Part shown: piece after piece, positions 44,858 to 53,767 of the stretch
How the letters are laid out: every line of letters begins with the position of its first letter
Numbering within the stretch: position 1 is the stretch's first letter
Assembly: GCA_964549615.1 (NCBI GenBank)
Contig: CAZJVP010000020.1
Location: 1 to 64,000, forward strand
DNA from: an uncultured Thermococci archaeon
GTDB lineage: Archaea; CAYQAE01; CAYVLA01
Direction of reading: 5' to 3'
Length of the DNA stretch: 64,000 nt
Program-made: the position numbers and the translations under genes
The notes under the pieces: model-generated
The model's input: only the letters and a program-made list of their open reading frames with translations
What the model was told of the DNA's origin: nothing
Database searches by the model: none

Positions 44858-45391
44858 CTACTGCGGTGCCTGTTCCCTCTCCTCCCCGGACGGCGTGGGA
44901 GCCTCCTCGACCTTCTCCTCAGCCACGCTCTCGGCTGGGGCTTCGGCTCCCTGCGACTCCTCGCCTTTCTTGCGCCTTCCAACGAAGAAGAGCACTGCCG
45001 CAGCCGCAAGCATGATTATCCCGACGGGCAGCATCCACCGCAGGATGAAGATATCGACGTCGCTCGTGGGCTCCTCCCCGTACTTCTTCTGGGTCGCGTA
45101 CCAGTTTTCCATGATTACTCCAACGAAAAGCATGATCACGCCCAGGACCACTAGGGCCCGGACGAAAGCGAAAGAGCCCTCCGTTGCCTCGGTCACGATC
45201 TCGATCTTCGGCAGCCCAGCGATGGCTTGTTTGACGTGCTCCTTGGTGACCAGGGTCGCGCCTGCATTGGACGCGGCCTTCTCGGAGTCCTTCCTGATTC
45301 GTTCAATGGCAGAGTCTATCTCCGCGGCCTTCCCAGGCAGTTTCGCGCGCCTTGACTCCAGAAACTCCTGGGCTTCTTTGCTCCATTCCAT
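44858..45391 (-). CDS. Small membrane protein: PCP_red-like N-terminal domain, 2 TM, acidic tail
   Basis: MEWSKEA...L...E.AA...G...VT.EHV..A pattern, two hydrophobic helices, Glu-rich C-terminus. Confidence 0.65.
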   Translation of the reverse strand: MEWSKEAQEFLESRRAKLPGKAAEIDSAIERIRKDSEKAASNAGATLVTKEHVKQAIAGLPKIEIVTEATEGSFAFVRALVVLGVIMLFVGVIMENWYATQKKYGEEPTSDVDIFILRWMLPVGIIMLAAAAVLFFVGRRKKGEESQGAEAPAESVAEEKVEEAPTPSGEEREQAPQ

Positions 45392-45478: not shown

Positions 45479-46243
45479 TCAGCTTCCGAGGCCCGCCTGG
45501 CCGGAAGCGTGAGCGCAATCCGGTTGTTGGACGATGCGCTGATCGTTGGCGTAGATGTTCATCCTTTCCTCCCTTGCAAAGCCTATCAAAGTCACGCCGA
45601 CCCTCCTAGCGAGCTTCACCGCCAACGCCGTGGTCGCCCCTCGCGAGGCAAGGATTGGGATGCCGGCTCCATAGCACTTCGCAACGATCGTCGAGTTCGT
45701 CCTCCCCGTCAACGCGGCCATGCATCTGCCAAGGTCGAATCCCTCAAGCAGGGCAGCCCCCACGGCCTTATCGAAGGCGTTATGTCGACCGATATCGTCA
45801 CACAAACTGGCCATCACGGGCAGACCCCCTTCGTCCGGAAGCTGGAACAATCCGCAGGTGTGAACGCCACCCGTCAGGCGATGGGTGCAGGAGGAACCCA
45901 CATGGTCCAGCGCGGCCAGTACCTGGCTCGGACTTGCCTTGACCTTTGATTCCAGCGCCTTGAAGCCCTTGATGGCGAGCATCCCGTGCCCGTCTAGCGA
46001 GCGCGCCCCGAACCGAGTCGTACTTGCGGCGATCTTTGGCCGGGCTGTTCGAATCTCCACCCTTGCCCAACCGCTCCCGCGGGCGAAGGTTTTGATGTCC
46101 CCGGGGACCTCTATCAACCCTTCGCAGATCAGGTGGCCCACGACCAGTTCTTTCACCCGGCCCGGTGACATCCTGACATCGATTGCGTGCTTGCCGTTGA
46201 CATGTATTGCCAAGGATACTTCTAAGGGCACCGGATCGCGCAA
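45479..46243 (-). CDS. fdhD: FdhD/NarQ-family sulfurtransferase-like protein
   Basis: E..L.I.VNG, L.VG.L..EG, TGGVH, DIGRHNA.DK.VG, TGR, L.GF.R. Confidence 0.88.
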   Translation of the reverse strand: MRDPVPLEVSLAIHVNGKHAIDVRMSPGRVKELVVGHLICEGLIEVPGDIKTFARGSGWARVEIRTARPKIAASTTRFGARSLDGHGMLAIKGFKALESKVKASPSQVLAALDHVGSSCTHRLTGGVHTCGLFQLPDEGGLPVMASLCDDIGRHNAFDKAVGAALLEGFDLGRCMAALTGRTNSTIVAKCYGAGIPILASRGATTALAVKLARRVGVTLIGFAREERMNIYANDQRIVQQPDCAHASGQAGLGS

Positions 46244-46501: not shown

Positions 46502-49189
46502 CTAGGCAGCGACCGAGCTGACGCGCGCGGCGTCTGGCACGCCCATCATCATCCTGTCGATCTCCGACACGAAAATGGCGGATAGATCCCTCATGTCCCT
46601 CACGAAGAACAGGCTCCCGCCCCCGATCTCCGCGAGCTGTCGAGCCAGCTCGGGATTATAGGACCGTCCAACCTGGGAGGGCTCATCCTGCTTGCCAATG
46701 CACACCACGGAGATGCCTATCCCTTGCCTTGCCGCCAGCCTAGCACACCTGCGGGCATACTCGGCTGCGAACTGTTTCGGCTTGGGATGCGTGGCATCCC
46801 CGTCCGTCAAAAGTATCATCTGTTTCCTGCGGTGCTCGCCTCGCTTCCCCTTGGCGCCATTACCCCCTTCCGGCTGGGCCTTTAGAAGGTCGATCCCCCT
46901 TCGTATCCCGGCCGCAATGTTCGTGCCGCCCCTGGGGAGGAGATTGGCGACCTTCGCAATCGTCACGTTCCTTCCCGAGCCGAACTCTGCAACCTCGGTG
47001 GACAGGTCCCTGAAACCGACCACCCCTACCCTGTTTCCGTACCTCTCGGCGATTATCGTCATGACCACAACTGCCTGTTTCGCGTACCAGAGTTTGTCCC
47101 CGTAGGCCATGCTGCCAGAAAGGTCGAGCACAACCACCACATCAAGGTTCCCTTCGATGACGAGATCCCTCCTTTCCGGCTCCCGCTCGTAGACGTAGAG
47201 GTTTTCCCGCCCGACGTTCTTCCTGCCCATCCTGATGGCATCGCGAATGGTCTCCCGAACGGCCATGTCCTTGTAGGAGTCGCCCCTTTGGTATTTTCTG
47301 ACATCCTTGACGTCGGAGCTGGGCAGCGGAGGCAGATCCTCGTGAACTACCCCCTGAAGCGCGTCATAAACCCGCCTCAGGATTCTCTCATCGAGATCCG
47401 ACATCAGAAAACGGGAAACCCTGTGGGTGAACGTGATCCCCTTCGAGCTCTTGATGAGGCCCTCCCTCACCAGGTGTTTCTTAAGCTCCTCCATCGGGCG
47501 GTTCCGGGAAACGCGACTGCCTGCGGGCAATTTCCCCAGGACGGCATAAAGCCTCGGGTACCGCTGAGGATTCCTGCTAACCTGCTCCGCTATATCGGAG
47601 AGCGACGCCTGTTCCTTGGCCTTCTCGGCGTAGAGCTCGTCCCTGGCTGCTGAGATCTCTTTCACCGCCTCGCCGAGGGCGTTCCCCTCCAGTTCCCTCG
47701 AAAGTGGGGTGACCTCCTCCGCTATGTTGCGGTAAAGCCGGGTGAGGGGCTCCCAGGAAATGCCCAACCGCCCTCTGATCTTGGCCATCAGGCGAGAGTC
47801 CCTGACGGATCTCCCAAGGTCCAGATAGTCGAACAGGAATGTCGAAAGGAAGACGATGGCGATCATCGACAGCACAAGTAGCATCGGCGGAATGCCCCTG
47901 AACGGGGATGGCATCTTGCCTGCGCCGGGCAACTGCCCTTTCGATTCGCCTTCACCAAGTAGGTAAGAGGTGTAGTTCGCAAGCGCCCAAGTTTGATTCC
48001 CGCTCGTGACGTACAGGATGTCTTCGTTAGGATCGTAAATCTTGGTGGTGGTCTCCTCCTCCAGGTCGGCCCCGATCTGCTGGCTTAACTCCTCCCAAAG
48101 CTCTTCAGGCACGGACTGGACTTCAGTGGCCTGTTCGCTGACATTTCCGAAATAGGGACTGATCGCCCCATCCAGAGCCGTTCCACCAGTCGGCGTCTGG
48201 ACCGGCGGGATCTGCCCTCGGGGCGGGGCCGCCAAGAATACGCCGAAGATCACGAGGATGACCAAGCCGGCGGCGGCCGGGATGTACCAATATCTTCTCA
48301 GCCGTCGGGCTTTCCGGGATCCTTCAGCTGGCGGCGAGCGCGCCGATAGCACCGCATCCTCGAATATGCTCTTGGCAAGCTCTCTGTTGGTCTTCCAAGA
48401 GAACGGGTTCACCTTTATCGAGTGTGCGAACGAGGCATAGCATGAGTTGTAGAGATCGTCCTCGTCAGGCTCCCTTCCTGCCAGAGCCATGCAGGCACAA
48501 ACGTTCTCGACAAACCTTATCCCTGACCTCGTGCTAGCGCCTGACTCCAAGTCAGGGTGGCTTCTGCTTCTGCTCAGGAACTTGGATGCAAGCCTCGGCA
48601 CGTAGTCCGGCAGCACGGTGTGACAGTTAGACTGGCTCGCAATGAACTTCTCCTCCTCCGACTCATTCTCCGGAAAGGAGATCGCAACGACCTGGAACCG
48701 ATCCAGCAACCTCTCGTCCACGACGCACTTGGTCGCGGTGGCAACCATTACCACGTCGACCTTTACCTCGCGTTGCCCCACGGAGACGATCCCATCGTCG
48801 AAGAAGTCGGCCAGAGCCTGGGCCACCTTCTCCGGCAGGGTGTCCAAGTCCTTTAGCAGGAGGCCTCCGCCGTCCGCCTTCTCGATGGCTCCTGCCACAT
48901 ACGATCTTGCGTCCCTGTAGCCGAACTTCCTGAGAGCCACAGGGTCCACGTCGCCGAACAGATCCTCCCTGCGCAGGCTGGCCGAGCAGGTCACCGTCTG
49001 GAACTCCAAGCCCATCGCGCGCAGGATGCTCGAGGCCACGGCCTCCTTCGGAGTCCCGGCCGGCCCGATGATGAGCAACGGCCGGCCCGTCAAGACTGCT
49101 CCGATGAGGTCGGCCTTCTCGCGCTCAGAAAGCAAGCTGCCCGAGAGATGCTCCTTGAGTCTTGCGACAATCTCCTCGCGCTCGCTCAT
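46502..49189 (-). CDS. Degenerate AAA+ / 2 TM / vWA fusion protein (ChlD-like layout)
   Basis: GPAGTPKE, LFGDVDP, LLDRF, GAS.R lid; two TM helices; R.Y..GD, LDLSGSM, GGTN, LTDG. Confidence 0.85.
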   Translation of the reverse strand: MSEREEIVARLKEHLSGSLLSEREKADLIGAVLTGRPLLIIGPAGTPKEAVASSILRAMGLEFQTVTCSASLRREDLFGDVDPVALRKFGYRDARSYVAGAIEKADGGGLLLKDLDTLPEKVAQALADFFDDGIVSVGQREVKVDVVMVATATKCVVDERLLDRFQVVAISFPENESEEEKFIASQSNCHTVLPDYVPRLASKFLSRSRSHPDLESGASTRSGIRFVENVCACMALAGREPDEDDLYNSCYASFAHSIKVNPFSWKTNRELAKSIFEDAVLSARSPPAEGSRKARRLRRYWYIPAAAGLVILVIFGVFLAAPPRGQIPPVQTPTGGTALDGAISPYFGNVSEQATEVQSVPEELWEELSQQIGADLEEETTTKIYDPNEDILYVTSGNQTWALANYTSYLLGEGESKGQLPGAGKMPSPFRGIPPMLLVLSMIAIVFLSTFLFDYLDLGRSVRDSRLMAKIRGRLGISWEPLTRLYRNIAEEVTPLSRELEGNALGEAVKEISAARDELYAEKAKEQASLSDIAEQVSRNPQRYPRLYAVLGKLPAGSRVSRNRPMEELKKHLVREGLIKSSKGITFTHRVSRFLMSDLDERILRRVYDALQGVVHEDLPPLPSSDVKDVRKYQRGDSYKDMAVRETIRDAIRMGRKNVGRENLYVYEREPERRDLVIEGNLDVVVVLDLSGSMAYGDKLWYAKQAVVVMTIIAERYGNRVGVVGFRDLSTEVAEFGSGRNVTIAKVANLLPRGGTNIAAGIRRGIDLLKAQPEGGNGAKGKRGEHRRKQMILLTDGDATHPKPKQFAAEYARRCARLAARQGIGISVVCIGKQDEPSQVGRSYNPELARQLAEIGGGSLFFVRDMRDLSAIFVSEIDRMMMGVPDAARVSSVAA

Positions 49190-50220
49190 GTGAGGTACCA
49201 TCCGAACTCGTGCAAGACTTCAAGCCCGAACTTCCTAGCATCAGCATCGGACATCCCCGTTGCGGCTGGAAGCACCGAACACAGCGCATCGTAGAGGTCC
49301 CTGGGGCTAGCGACCCTCGAGCCGCGCATGAGCGAGTACGCCTGGGTCTTCTCAAACATCTTGATGCTGGCCCTAACGCTCGCCGGCTTAGACCCCAAGT
49401 CCTCGTCCGTACGAGTTCTTTGCACCGCCCGACATATGGCCTCGACCATTTTGTCTTCGACCTGCACGCCGAGCTTGCGGGCTTCGTTGGCGATTATGGT
49501 GGATTCCTCGTGCACGGTCGCAGGATAGCTCATCTCGATCACGTCAACGCGGTCGAGCAGCACATCGATCAGCGGGACGTCGCCTGACTCTGGGGAGAGA
49601 TTGGAGGTCGCTATCATGAGGAACTCGGCCGGGTAGTCAACATCGTAGCCTGAGATCGTCGCCTTGCCCTCGTCGAGTACCTGCAGAAACGCCCCTTGCA
49701 GCCTCTGCGGCATCTTGGCTATCTCGTCGCAGAAGACGATTCCGTTGTTTCCCTTGAGCAGCTTCCCAGGGGTGAAGGCTCGATAGTCCGTCGGGGAATA
49801 CTTGAAGGCTGCGACTGGGTCGATGTCGCCCAGCAGGTCCTGGACCGTGAGATCCGGGCTGCCCTGAATCCTCACGAACCTCTCTAGTCCTGCGATGCGC
49901 CTCGTTGGAATGGACCTTCCCGCGTTTCCCGCCCTGGAGTACTTACTTGTGCAAACCGGGCACGAGATGCGATCGGGTTGACAGTTGAACTCGCATCCGT
50001 CGATCACTTCGATGGGACGAAGGAGCTTCGCCATCTCCTTTGCCATCGTCGTCTTTCCGCATCCCCTCGGACCCTTGAGGATCACGTCATGGCCCGCGAC
50101 GACCGACGCCAAGAACTGCTTCTTCGAATCCACCTGCCCAATTATCCGCGAGAGCGGGTCCTCGCCCCTCCTGACGTATTCGATCAGCGTCTCGCGCAGT
50201 TCCTCCTTGATCCCCATCAT
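49186..50220 (-). CDS. ChlI/MoxR-clade AAA+ ATPase
   Basis: GPRGCGKTT, C.FNC.P...CP.C insert, RIQGSPDLT..DLLGDIDP, FCDE, LLDR; ATGA overlap with the next gene. Confidence 0.9.
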   Translation of the reverse strand: MMGIKEELRETLIEYVRRGEDPLSRIIGQVDSKKQFLASVVAGHDVILKGPRGCGKTTMAKEMAKLLRPIEVIDGCEFNCQPDRISCPVCTSKYSRAGNAGRSIPTRRIAGLERFVRIQGSPDLTVQDLLGDIDPVAAFKYSPTDYRAFTPGKLLKGNNGIVFCDEIAKMPQRLQGAFLQVLDEGKATISGYDVDYPAEFLMIATSNLSPESGDVPLIDVLLDRVDVIEMSYPATVHEESTIIANEARKLGVQVEDKMVEAICRAVQRTRTDEDLGSKPASVRASIKMFEKTQAYSLMRGSRVASPRDLYDALCSVLPAATGMSDADARKFGLEVLHEFGWYLT

Positions 50221-50480
50221 CCCACCGGGGCATGACACCTGCGAGGCTCGCCGTTTAACTGTTTTCGAGCAGGATGAGTGGCATATCCATTCTGCCTTCA
50301 GCACGCAGGAATCCGATCCTCGATCAAGACGTGTGCAACAACCGTAACCCAGAGTTCAAGTCCGGACGATATGAAAACCGTTCGGGGCATCTGGCATCGA
50401 CAAGCGAACGGCGCTCCAATCGACCCGTCGGAGCGCCACAGCGCGGCGTAAGATTAATAAGTTAGACGAGCGGGCGCGCA

Positions 50481-51305
50481 GTGCCCGATGTCCGCTATGC
50501 TATCAGGGGGTTCCATTTGGACGAGTACATACTTTTTTCCAAGAATGGTGAGGGCTCATTCGAAGTCAAGATCCCTTTCTCGGCCGATTCGCTGAATCAA
50601 GTCTCGCATCTCTTGACGAAGGAGGGGCTCATTCTCCCGAAGACTGAGATCGAGAAGCTCTACTCGAGCTTGGAAGAACTCAAGGGCATGCTCGCCGAGA
50701 TGAAGAGGCAGAGCGAGCTCTCCAACCGCCTGATCCAAGATGTCCTCAGGAGAGGACTCAAAGAATCCGAACTCAAGGATGACCGAGCTCCTGTGTCCTC
50801 CGATGAGGTTGGGCCGGAGAGCAAGGAAGAGCCTGAGATACCGAAGGACAAGATATCCATCCTTCCCTCTCCTAAGACCAAGGCCTTTGAACTCATCAGC
50901 CGCCTCGCGAACCAGCACATGGACAAAGAGTTCACGACCGCCAACCTGACCCTATATGAGAAGCGGGTCTTCTCGTTGCTCGTGAAGAGGTACGAATTCG
51001 TGAAGAAGGTCAGGAAAGAGGGAAGGAACATCGTCTACCAGTTCACTGAGCGTGCCCTCGACTTGATATGCAAGGAGCTCGGCGGAACTACTTCCATCAC
51101 GGTTAGTTCCCGCGTCCGGTCGAAGAATCTGGAGGAGTTCATGGACAAGATGAAGGAGAGGTACCCGCACTTCTCGTACTCTTCCGTTCCCACCCGCTCG
51201 GCCTACAAGCAGTACAAGCTGTTTTTCTCGGACAAGTCGGTCAGGAAGTCGGTCGTCGATAACCTCACGCGGATGTTCGGGCCCACTGGCATCAGGATCT
51301 CCTAA
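50481..51305 (+). CDS. Hypothetical protein (coiled coil, acidic linker, possible wHTH)
   Basis: 274-aa ORF with archaeal Lys/Glu-rich composition; ATTAATAA upstream. Confidence 0.7.
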   Translation: MPDVRYAIRGFHLDEYILFSKNGEGSFEVKIPFSADSLNQVSHLLTKEGLILPKTEIEKLYSSLEELKGMLAEMKRQSELSNRLIQDVLRRGLKESELKDDRAPVSSDEVGPESKEEPEIPKDKISILPSPKTKAFELISRLANQHMDKEFTTANLTLYEKRVFSLLVKRYEFVKKVRKEGRNIVYQFTERALDLICKELGGTTSITVSSRVRSKNLEEFMDKMKERYPHFSYSSVPTRSAYKQYKLFFSDKSVRKSVVDNLTRMFGPTGIRIS

Positions 51306-52216
51306 GTCGGGCCCAGCTCGCCCGAATCCAAACCCTCGATGACCCTGAAGATCACATCCCCTAGGGCCTTGAGGCTGCGCGCGTCGATCTTGTCCAGGTC
51401 GTCCTTCGCCGTGTGCCAGTATGAATTGAGCGGCCCATAACGAAAATCGATGAGCAGGCACGAGGGAACGCCAATTGCCATGAACGGCACGTGGTCGTCC
51501 ATAACGGCGATCTGGGATAGCTTGAAGTGCCGACCGTATCCTAGATCCTTCGCCTTCCGCCACACGTACTCCACGAGATCTTGGTCCGAGTTCCGGTCTT
51601 TCCGGATGCCGAGATGCCTGTCGCCGATCATGTCAGCAACGATGAGCCACTCGGGCTTCTGCTCGTCGGCGCCGAGTTTCTCGGCAAGATGCCTGCTGCC
51701 GAAAAACATCGTGGCTAGGTCGTCGCCCACATCCTCGCCGTCGAAGAATACGATCCACACAGTGTGGTTGAGGGCCGTTGAAGCCAGCACCCTTGACAAC
51801 TCCAATAGCAGGCCGGAGCTGGAGCCCCCGTCATTTGCGCCCGGGATCTCCTTCGTGTCATAGTGGCCGCCGACGGCAATGATCCGCCCCGTCTTCCCCG
51901 GGATGACTCCGATGATGTTCTCCATCCGGTAAGTTGTACCTTTGTAAGTGGCCGAGAAAGCGTCGATCCAGACCTCCAGACCCAGGCTCGAGAGGTAGCC
52001 TGAGATGTACCGCCTGGCCTTGACTATCGAATCGGAGCCGATCGACCTCGGGCCGAGGCTAACCAACTCTTCGACGTGGGAGTAGGCCCGCGCACCGGAG
52101 AATGGCGTCGCGCTCTCGTTCCGCACGACGACCCTTGATCCGTTCGCGCCGATCGCGTAGAAGCTGGCGGCAGCCCCAGCAACCAGAATACAGAGAAACG
52201 CAGCCTGTTTGCGCAT
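51302..52216 (-). CDS. M28 peptidase / glutaminyl cyclase-like secreted protein
   Basis: G.R..GS, HYDT, GANDGGS, FFDGED, DMIG, DDH.PF, YWHT..D. Confidence 0.92.
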   Translation of the reverse strand: MRKQAAFLCILVAGAAASFYAIGANGSRVVVRNESATPFSGARAYSHVEELVSLGPRSIGSDSIVKARRYISGYLSSLGLEVWIDAFSATYKGTTYRMENIIGVIPGKTGRIIAVGGHYDTKEIPGANDGGSSSGLLLELSRVLASTALNHTVWIVFFDGEDVGDDLATMFFGSRHLAEKLGADEQKPEWLIVADMIGDRHLGIRKDRNSDQDLVEYVWRKAKDLGYGRHFKLSQIAVMDDHVPFMAIGVPSCLLIDFRYGPLNSYWHTAKDDLDKIDARSLKALGDVIFRVIEGLDSGELGPT

Positions 52217-52273: not shown

Positions 52274-53767
52274 ATGAGAAGGCGCGCGCTGCTTCTGTGT
52301 CTCATCCTACTACCCTTCCCGGATGCGGCTTTCGCGTTCATAAGGGTCGAGAGGACGCCGTGTTCGCTCGCCGACCTGAAGGGCTTCACCTCCTACTGGA
52401 ACGACTCCTACATCTTGACGATCGATGATATGAAGCTGCGGCTGGTCACCGGGATCGCCCAGGTCTCCAGAGGCACGTCGATCGAGAAGCTCATCTGGGA
52501 TCCCGAGATCGTTTCCGTCATGATCGATGATGAAGAGATCATGCGCAGGGCTTCCATCGCGAATCGGGACTATATCGACAACGATCCTCTGACCCGCCTG
52601 CCCTTCTTGGGGATAGGAGGGCTTGCGTCGCCCTACAACTACGCGAAAGGGATACTGCCTTATTCCCCGCCTCCCGCAACCATTCGTTGGAATGATGCCG
52701 GGGAGGGCGGCCTGCTGAGCTGGAAGTCCCAATACTCCTACTCGCCTGGAGATGCAATCCTCTGGCTCAATCGCACCTTCATCCTGAATTCGAGCCTTGA
52801 TGTTGAGTGCAGTTACTGGGTCACTTCCGACTACACCGCAATTCAGCAGCAGATCAAAGTCACCAATGGCGAGCTGTCGCAATGTCTGCCTTTCCCTTTG
52901 GAAACCGCCTTCTCCCTGGGGGATGCATTGAGCGGGAAGGCCATCAGCCTGCCCAACATGACGCTGTCCCCTGAGAGGTACCTCACCTACCCCCGCGACG
53001 CCCTTCCGGAAGCATGGTACAACGAATCCTTCGGCGCGTTCATCCTGCCGGAGAAGATGTGGAAAGGTGAGGAACTGCCCGGGATGCTCTATGTTGAGTT
53101 CGACCTCGCCGACCGCGACTGGTTCGGGATGTGCGCTTTGACGAGCTATAGCTTCCAGCCGAGGATAGGCGTCGGCGTCAAGATCATCTCGACCGACATG
53201 CCCAGCGGATTCAGGCCATACTGCATCTTCGTATCCGGGGAAGATGATCATGTCATCATCGGCTTCAAGCCCTTCGATGTGCCGGGTCCGTATGGAGATT
53301 TCGTGCCAGCCACGCTGGCTCCGCGGGAGACGGTGTCGCTGGACCTTGTGTGGTTCTTCCCCCAGGCGGAAGAGGACACCATGTCCATCTCGGACTTGAC
53401 AAGGTGGGGAGACTCCGCCCTCAGCGTTCTTGCCTTCCACGCCAATAGGACGAGGGCCGAGGAACTCCTCGACCAAGCGAACGACCTTGCCCGCGAGGGG
53501 AAGGTGGACGACGCCATCGAGAAGGCCCAGGCCGCAGTCGGGATCTACCGGATCCTCGGCAACCTATCCGACGCCCTGTTTGAGGAGGCAAGAAAGGTCA
53601 ACGCAACGATAAGCACTTGGAGGAGCGCTGCCGCCAAGCGAACCCCCCACCCCGAGAAGGGCAGTCGGCTCGCGATCCTCGTCAGCACGACCCTAGTTTT
53701 GTCCTTGATCTTGGCATTGGCCGCTTGGATCTACGTGATCGAACCGCGCCGACCACGGAAGGGCTAG
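52274..53767 (+). CDS. Secreted protein with helical stalk and C-terminal TM anchor
   Basis: Signal peptide, beta-rich body, helical 'AEELLDQA...A...Y' segment, TM+RR. Confidence 0.7.
   Translation: MRRRALLLCLILLPFPDAAFAFIRVERTPCSLADLKGFTSYWNDSYILTIDDMKLRLVTGIAQVSRGTSIEKLIWDPEIVSVMIDDEEIMRRASIANRDYIDNDPLTRLPFLGIGGLASPYNYAKGILPYSPPPATIRWNDAGEGGLLSWKSQYSYSPGDAILWLNRTFILNSSLDVECSYWVTSDYTAIQQQIKVTNGELSQCLPFPLETAFSLGDALSGKAISLPNMTLSPERYLTYPRDALPEAWYNESFGAFILPEKMWKGEELPGMLYVEFDLADRDWFGMCALTSYSFQPRIGVGVKIISTDMPSGFRPYCIFVSGEDDHVIIGFKPFDVPGPYGDFVPATLAPRETVSLDLVWFFPQAEEDTMSISDLTRWGDSALSVLAFHANRTRAEELLDQANDLAREGKVDDAIEKAQAAVGIYRILGNLSDALFEEARKVNATISTWRSAAAKRTPHPEKGSRLAILVSTTLVLSLILALAAWIYVIEPRRPRKG

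Follow-up and report, generated by a model that had tools for sequence, protein, structure and literature searches.

What would a chelatase-type motor do when it is fixed in a membrane? This question is raised by two adjacent genes in a stretch of 64,000 nucleotides from an uncultured Thermococci archaeon (positions 1 to 64,000 of contig CAZJVP010000020.1, assembly GCA_964549615.1), which we call the window. One of them, gene I, codes for a ChlI-like AAA+ ATPase. The other, gene D, codes for a ChlD-like protein in which two predicted transmembrane (TM) segments and the loop between them lie between a degenerate AAA+ domain and a vWA domain with a metal ion-dependent adhesion site (MIDAS). A sequence-only reading of the window had suggested that this pair is a membrane-tethered AAA+ chaperone or sensor. 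Based on the analysis described here we propose, with a probability of about 0.6, that the product of the locus is an AAA+/vWA motor of ChlI-ChlD (MoxR-vWA) type, tethered to the membrane, that remodels a client other than a chelatase.

The start of gene I was placed at the ATG at 50220, where its homologues begin as well. The encoded protein has features of ChlI and BchI, namely, the AAA+ fold, intact Walker A and Walker B motifs, and a match to the Mg_chelatase model of Pfam (PF01078, 57.7 bits with a cut-off of 20.3). It also matches the MoxR-type models PF07726 AAA_3 (49.3 bits, cut-off 27) and PF07728 AAA_5 (48.5 bits, cut-off 22). Its closest solved relatives are ChlI (8osf, E 5.7e-13) and BchI (1g8p, E 2.4e-12), and among these structure relatives its four-cysteine insert aligns with the insert region of ChlI. 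It is not a member of the curated equivalog TIGR02030 because its score of 61 bits is far under the cut-off of 466.95 bits. Judged by its sequence, gene I is a catalytically competent ChlI-like ATPase. The intact Walker motifs and the cysteine-rich insert had been recognized in the sequence-only reading but the insert is not peculiar to gene I: it recurs throughout the widespread family of ATPases to which I belongs, and soluble D-like relatives carry it as well. The ATPase family is very large, with at least 1991 proteins at E<=1e-30 that are typically 47-52% identical, and it is found in many archaea as well as in Dehalococcoidia, Desulfobacterales, and others, where its members are annotated only as AAA, MoxR or ChlI.

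The AAA+ domain of D is a paralogue of that of I (BLASTP, 27% identity over 238 residues, E 4e-18), and the earlier view that both of its Walker motifs are broken is supported by the ten homologues of D. The lysine in the place of Walker A, K48, is invariant and the residue that follows it is always Glu or Asp and never Ser or Thr, while the Walker B glutamate is replaced by Leu or Ile in every one of the ten. The arginine of LLDRF is kept in nine of them and the ASTR..IR stretch is kept too. Unlike the soluble D-like relatives, D has lost the cysteine insert. In a Foldseek search with the AAA fold of D, NorQ and CbbQ were closest, the best match being NorQ (9qhd_B, E 1.1e-12).

The vWA domain at the C-terminus is, as had been noticed, complete in its MIDAS, in which D689, S691, S693, T756, and D796 are invariant in all ten homologues. 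Its best fold match is BatB (3ibs, E 1.1e-10), and 4jdu was also found. The AlphaFold2 (AF2) model of D has a mean predicted local distance difference test score (pLDDT) of 74, with most of the vWA domain at 80-92. Thus, D has the N-terminal AAA domain paralogous to I and the C-terminal vWA domain with MIDAS that define ChlD and BchD, but not the soluble and flexible linker that joins these domains there, because the linker of D contains two segments of TM grade in all ten homologues. TIGR02031 is absent among the matches of D at E<=0.01. It had been thought that the TM hairpin replaces the ChlD-type linker. This is not the case since the hairpin is inserted into it: the helical region before the vWA domain (residues ~460-680) remains and its C-terminal part aligns with the soluble relatives. 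This pre-vWA region gives a weak match to PF05762 VWA_CoxE (residues 631-772, 22.9 bits, under the cut-off of 26.4), and PF01882 DUF58 is likewise below threshold in D (20.2 bits against 23.4). When residues 290-680 were searched in the Protein Atlas the best score, 0.83 with clusters of PF27098 Rv0959_3rd, was inside the range obtained with shuffled sequences.

Both hydrophobic segments of D are found at the same positions in all ten full-length homologues, and since these homologues (55-77% identical) keep both in place, the hairpin is beyond chance. The hydropathy peaks fall where TM1 and TM2 had been proposed, and the acidic loop, which had been put at about 110 residues, is 101-111 residues long depending on where its borders are set. 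It has 16 Asp and Glu residues against 3-5 Lys and Arg, and is net acidic in seven of eight sequences, the exception being that of locus L020 with 11 Lys/Arg against 9 Asp/Glu. The 15 residues before TM1 and the 15 after TM2 contain 6 and 5 Lys/Arg, respectively, in the window's D, and 1-6 and 2-6 in the eight sequences. In each of these eight sequences N-X-S/T sequons are enriched about tenfold in the loop, with 2.1-6.1 per 100 residues compared to 0.1-0.9 in the rest of the protein. Two of the loop sequons, GN.T and NYT (N398 and N405-Y-T407), are at least 90% conserved, and the window's genome has three matches to STT3/AglB homologues. In the AF2 model the loop has a helix (362-372) and a three-stranded sheet with strands within 382-404, at a pLDDT of 60-76. 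A topology with the loop outside and both the AAA and vWA domains in the cytoplasm, as the sequence-only reading had it, is supported because the ATP-dependent fold must be cytoplasmic and the number of TM segments, two, is even; the Lys/Arg-rich flanks and the enrichment of sequons in the loop point the same way.

The overlap of the two genes that had been noticed is a constant feature (Table 1). I is next to D in all nine loci, and thus a MoxR-class AAA+ protein stands beside a vWA/MIDAS protein as in MoxR-vWA pairs. The search for the AAA+2TM+vWA architecture that the sequence-only reading had called for was made in two ways. A word-indexed search of 5.8 billion clusters gave 11 proteins, of which 10 are full-length, including the window's own (894-921 residues, 55-100% identical). 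When 1.84 billion representatives were searched exhaustively with HMMER, a profile of the family gave one full-length representative and two fragments, followed by 11 proteins of 684-805 residues. The membrane-anchored D family is therefore narrow, with ten protein clusters and nine loci in one archaeal family, and within the window's taxonomic family the I-D pair is present in all four species genomes. In the same loci I is 75-92% identical and D 54-77%, which fits a conserved engine with an adaptable adaptor.

Table 1. Positions of the I/D pair, its motifs and domains, and the neighbouring genes in the window
Feature	Position	Strand	Evidence or remark
Gene I, ChlI-like AAA+ ATPase, 344 aa	49186-50220	minus	Open reading frame (ORF) open up to GTG at 50304 (ORF span 49186-50304)
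Walker A of I, GPRGCGKT	50050-50073	minus	G50, P51, G53, G55, K56, T57 invariant in 9/9 aligned sequences
Four-Cys insert of I, C-x3-C...C-x2-C	49951-49995	minus	C76, C80, C87, C90 invariant in 9/9 aligned sequences
Walker B of I, VFCDE	49723-49737	minus	D165, E166 invariant (9 aligned sequences)
ATGA overlap, TGA stop of I and ATG start of D	49186-49189	minus	4-nt overlap in 8/8 loci: 7 ATGA, 1 GTGA
Gene D, ChlD-like membrane protein, 895 aa + stop	46502-49189	minus	ORF open up to 49201; database gene call P0001 also 895 aa
Degenerate AAA+ domain of D, residues 1-285	48335-49189	minus	PF07728 E 4.2e-8, PF00158 E 2.6e-8; AF2 pLDDT 85-92 in most of the domain
GPAGTPKE in Walker A place of D	49043-49066	minus	Sequence
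LLLKD in Walker B place of D	48848-48862	minus	Sequence
TM1 of D, residues ~294-327	48209-48310	minus	Kyte-Doolittle 2.6 over 19 aa (peak ~299-327); AF2 helix 294-320; preceded by SRKARRLRRY
Acidic loop of D, ~100 aa, predicted extracellular	47906-48208	minus	Small alpha/beta core, 3 N-X-S/T sequons
TM2 of D, residues ~429-458	47816-47905	minus	Kyte-Doolittle 2.45 over 19 aa; AF2 helix 435-455; followed by GRSVRDSRLMAKIRGR
Helical cytoplasmic linker (pre-vWA region), residues ~459-680	47150-47815	minus	Highly conserved in 10/10
vWA domain of D, complete MIDAS	46544-47149	minus	PF00092 E 3.9e-12, PF13519 E 2e-13
DLSGS of D MIDAS	47111-47125	minus	Sequence
FdhD sulfurtransferase gene, variable downstream neighbour, possibly outside the system	45479-46243	minus	PF02634 E 1.5e-53
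Small 2-TM protein, 177 aa, constant downstream neighbour	44858-45391	minus	Follows D or FdhD in 8/8 loci reaching that far
274-aa protein, no Pfam or PADLOC match	50481-51305	plus	Divergent from gene I; 56-88% identity in 8/8 loci reaching that far
M28 peptidase, constant neighbour	51302-52216	minus	Hydrophobic N-terminus resembling signal peptide (by eye)
497-aa protein, C-terminal TM anchor, no Pfam match, constant neighbour	52274-53767	plus	Sequence

In the mechanism that we propose, I would form the ring that hydrolyses ATP and D would dock on this ring by its dead AAA domain, and so hold it against the cytoplasmic side of the membrane. Carried on the helical linker, D's vWA/MIDAS domain would then grip an acidic residue of the client in the way that ChlD does with ChlH and NorD with NorB. 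Hydrolysis of ATP would remodel the client, or load a cofactor or metal into it, at the membrane, with the loop of D glycosylated and exposed outside the cell, and the client would be something other than a tetrapyrrole chelatase subunit. There are precedents for the gripping step in passages of three reports: ChlD's integrin-I domain binds ChlH in a Mg-dependent manner (PMC6604950), the vWA domain of NorD plugs the pore of the NorQ hexamer and carboxylates of cNOR are needed (PMC9976466), and the vWA domain of CobT moves to the CobS pore on ATP binding (bioRxiv 10.64898/2026.10.09.757910).

Several points weigh against this proposal. The I-D hetero-oligomer, whose modelling had been suggested, was predicted from two chains, I and residues 1-290 of D, with a score of 0.46 when the best of three controls gave 0.00; the three runs agreed in at least 86% of contacts and the pLDDT of the partner was at least 83. 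Of 157 solved complexes 116 come up to the mark for this score, and so do 2 of 215 mismatched pairs; only 18 of the 157, together with both mismatched pairs, do so at 0.60 or lower. As support for binding the model is weak, and because pairs of AAA domains are similar to complexes already solved, such as AAA+ rings, it may have passed by likeness only. The roles of arginine finger for the LLDRF arginine and of sensor 2 for the ASTR..IR stretch are putative assignments by analogy with BchI. The topology of D is based on hydropathy, charge bias, sequons, and AF2 helices, and the ectodomain model is of low confidence, with the loop pLDDT given above and an average of 60.5 in a separate model of the hairpin region. 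The survey of gene neighbourhoods that had been called for showed that the pair is conserved in nine loci among housekeeping genes. Since these flanking genes (pelota, Hjc, PolB, and ThrRS) are conserved too and all nine loci come from one archaeal family, the conserved gene order is silent on what I and D do. No client gene could be inferred from the gene context of I/D, and the neighbourhoods of three soluble relatives, those of genomes G011, G018, and G022, have no third gene in common.

Comparison with known systems shows what the pair shares with each of them. As in ChlI/ChlD (BchI/BchD), the small AAA+ subunit is active and its insert lies between the two Walker motifs, the larger paralogue joins an impaired AAA domain by a linker to a C-terminal integrin-I/vWA domain with MIDAS, and the two genes are adjacent. 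The pair differs in that there is no ChlH or CobN in the genome, in the TM hairpin and extracellular loop in the linker of D, and in the loss of the cysteine insert from D; neither protein reaches the curated models of ChlI and ChlD. CobS/CobT is also a two-protein AAA+/vWA motor, and according to the preprint cited above its vWA domain comes to dock at the AAA+ pore when ATP binds, but CobT has neither an AAA-derived N-domain of this type nor TM segments and its client, CobN, was not found here. NorQ/NorD (CbbQ/CbbO) provides the best fold matches of the AAA domain of D. There the action on the client is through vWA/MIDAS and carboxylates of the client, and the client of NorQD is a membrane enzyme, as passages of PMC9976466 describe. 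NorD, in contrast, is soluble and has no AAA domain, and no nor or cbb genes are near I/D.

The Bacteroides BatA/BatB proteins resemble D in being membrane-anchored vWA proteins beside a MoxR ATPase, and BatB is the best vWA fold match as mentioned above. Bat proteins have N-terminal TM anchors and no AAA domain and are encoded in an operon with DUF58 and TPR proteins. Such an operon, with MoxR, DUF58, the TM-vWA proteins BatA/BatB, and the TPR proteins BatC-E, is not at the I/D locus, where the neighbours are FdhD, the 2-TM protein, the M28 peptidase, and proteins without an assigned family. By analogy only, FtsH is also a hexameric AAA+ machine at the membrane, each subunit of which is held there by two TM helices that flank a small extracytoplasmic domain. 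FtsH differs in that its hairpin is N-terminal and its output is proteolysis, and it is not known to be homologous beyond the AAA+ fold.

The proteins that followed the D family in the exhaustive search, 11 in number (684-805 residues, E 7.6e-62 to 7.2e-32), do not have the hairpin pair in any case. In these soluble D-like relatives Walker A is intact, the cysteine insert is present, and the helical pre-vWA region is shared, and in 7 of the 11 the Walker B glutamate is already lost. Because the closest relatives are soluble AAA-linker-vWA proteins, the hairpin is a lineage-specific insertion into the linker. D of this family is thus a further-decayed paralogue that has acquired a hairpin and an ectodomain. 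The partner ATPase has its own peculiarity: the last ~25 residues of I (49186-49260, minus strand, ending in ...LHEFGWYL[RT]) are conserved only inside the membrane-anchored family and differ from those of the orthologue in G011, with which I shares 50% identity elsewhere. Such a family-specific C-terminus may be an adaptation to a membrane-bound partner.

How common such modules are was seen in a sample of 401 archaeal genomes, 138 of which have a match at E<=1e-25 to the profile of alignment A2, which mixes the D family with the soluble relatives so that a match may rest on the AAA part alone. The module occurs as two genes (an AAA protein of ~340 residues and a linker-vWA protein of ~350-430 residues), as one fused AAA-linker-vWA protein (733-842 residues), or as I with an AAA-linker-vWA protein, as in G011. 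In many small archaeal genomes (loci L067, L068, L072-L074, L076, L078, and L080) the AAA and linker-vWA parts are adjacent separate ORFs, and the profile match crosses 1-4 stop codons at their junction. Among the 27 best loci that were inspected only the one of the window's own family, that of G003, has the hairpin and the other 26 do not. For the other 150 matches listed, a hydropathy threshold of 1.3 gave single or core-domain hydrophobic stretches, and when read by position none had the AAA-TM-loop-TM-vWA pattern.

However, among 16 more distant ChlD-like loci there is one (G209, L087:1347-3731, minus strand, protein G209:C3 of 794 residues) in which two to three TM helices (residues 373-455), with almost no loop, separate an active AAA domain from the vWA/MIDAS domain. 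Its clade has four clusters of 793-796 residues, and a search for CobN in the G209 genome gave no match. As in the window's D, a ChlI-like AAA domain comes first, the linker carries TM helices, and vWA/MIDAS follows. Unlike the window's pair it is a single polypeptide, its AAA domain is active (GPKGSGKS, YVDE, and the cysteine insert), and its loop is of a few residues with no ectodomain. It matches the A2 profile at E 4.2e-27 over the AAA part only and is not a close relative of D. Since the match is weak and confined to that part, the hairpin of G209 is probably an independent insertion. Membrane anchoring in the AAA-vWA linker has therefore probably arisen more than once, in two unrelated archaeal clades.

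The site of I/D is fixed in all nine loci. On one side are pelota, Hjc, a GNAT protein, the 497-residue membrane protein, the M28 peptidase, and the 274-residue protein, and on the other side are the 2-TM protein, PolB, and ThrRS. The gene order is otherwise rigid and the position of FdhD is a mobile insertion point in it: FdhD is between D and the 2-TM gene in six of the nine loci, and in G001, which is of the same genus, and in G002 its single copy is on another contig. The N-terminus of the 2-TM protein (MEW..EA...) gives a weak match to PF08369 PCP_red (E 0.019; its 15.4 bits fall short of the cut-off, 32.5) and can be aligned to that of a PCP_red-CGGC protein encoded two genes past the soluble I-D pair of G011. 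A hidden Markov model of this N-terminal domain, when run over all loci collected, in which the flanks of most others extend only ~1.5 kb, found only the copies in the family and the G011 protein. The 2-TM protein could be a third component of the I/D system. Upstream of the soluble pair of G011 there is an M20/M28-clan peptidase and a thioredoxin-BatD protein.

The explanations that compete with our proposal can be weighed against these results. That D is an artefact, either a mis-assembled fusion or a protein whose hydrophobic segments are not membrane helices, has a negligible probability. No evidence for it was found: the same architecture occurs in ten clusters from different sources, the patterns of hydropathy, charge, and sequons are kept, the whole region lies within one 48-kb contig of the probable source run, and over the hairpin region independent contigs of a second study are identical (0 differences), free of joints and indels. 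A relative that is 90-99% identical is present in a third study, and all three runs are recorded as hot-spring metagenomes. Mis-assembly of D is excluded. That the pair is an ordinary class I Mg, Co or Ni chelatase motor whose large subunit is encoded elsewhere is hard to credit, although homologues of I are annotated as Mg-chelatase subunit ChlI and TIGR02442, putative cobaltochelatase, is the best NCBIfam match of both proteins. The scores with this model, 50.7 bits for D and 73.4 bits for I, are far below the cut-off of 779.45 bits. The sequence-only reading had noted that no ChlH or CobN gene is in the window, and this extends to the whole genome, G000, which is 99.46% complete, and to three sister genomes, G001-G003, since PF02514 (CobN/ChlH) had 0 matches in any of them and was found in the five known carriers used as controls. 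Because this model was not found in four genomes of the family, a class I chelatase motor is very unlikely. ChlI/D-like pairs without chlH or cobN are on record, and part of the text of PMC9227772 calls their function unclear, which also counts against a chelatase. An equally improbable alternative is a role in conflict or defence against viruses, as a MoxR-vWA ternary system. MoxR-vWA pairs are described in passages of PMC7159879 as the core of published conflict systems, and PADLOC gave weak AAA-only matches to RtcR/DolB-type models. Nothing beyond this generic AAA core was matched, with no PADLOC match in the three neighbours that were scanned, and there is no effector and no third adaptor gene of the VMAP kind. 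Moreover, the fixed housekeeping site in nine loci and the presence in all four genomes of the family are unlike patchy, mobile defence islands.

Maturation of a Mo or W (molybdenum or tungsten) enzyme together with the downstream FdhD, by analogy with CoxD (MoxR) and CoxE (vWA) in assembly of the CO-dehydrogenase cluster, is distinctly unlikely but less so than a chelatase or a defence role. It draws on the FdhD gene being directly downstream on the same strand in most loci, the window included, on the weak VWA_CoxE match described above, and on CoxD, which passages of PMC3471820 describe as a membrane protein acting in biosynthesis of the [CuSMoO2] cluster. On the other hand, FdhD is missing from this place in three of the nine loci, one of them from the same genus, and no Mo/W enzyme gene is adjacent to I/D. 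Transmembrane signalling, in which the ectodomain senses a cue outside and the hairpin gates the ring ATPase and vWA domain (outside-in), or in which the motor moves the ectodomain (inside-out, as in integrins), is unlikely too but is to be taken more seriously. The loop has a conserved small alpha/beta core with D386 invariant and the motif YD..D.LY..GN.TW..NYT at least 90% conserved; it is kept in all ten homologues though a bare anchor needs none, as the G209 clade with almost no loop illustrates; and TM2 is far better conserved than TM1, as expected if it is more than an anchor. Yet the loop is the least conserved part of D, it has no match to a known sensor domain in Pfam and no confident fold, and neither a transcription factor nor a kinase is tied to I/D as an output. 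The loop may nonetheless be more than an anchor, as the sensor and transducer readings have it. At its most ambitious, six D on a hexamer of I would make a ring of twelve TM helices with six glycosylated ectodomains, which would be an ATP-driven inside-out transducer or a gated membrane device in which a chelatase-type motor would alter the cell surface or drive some movement within or through the membrane. We hold this to be about as doubtful as the Mo/W proposal. If true, archaea would have a counterpart of integrin-style signalling by vWA domains rather than a mere anchored chaperone.

No description of a membrane-spanning ChlD or AAA-vWA protein was found in the literature searched (open-access papers and bioRxiv). 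In the accessible part of PMC9227772, which deals with chlI/chlD without chlH/cobN, the words membrane and transmembrane have 0 occurrences. The anatomy of the I/D pair is solid; its function we infer. ChlI/ChlD-like motors without a chelatase partner are widespread, and a version of the motor that is fixed in the membrane narrows where its client must be. Being an anchored, two-gene, self-contained complex, the remodelling motor that we propose also offers a handle for pull-downs and cryo-electron microscopy. Finally, that TM segments have entered the AAA-vWA linker in no fewer than two unrelated clades of archaea suggests that this motor has been put to work at the membrane repeatedly.

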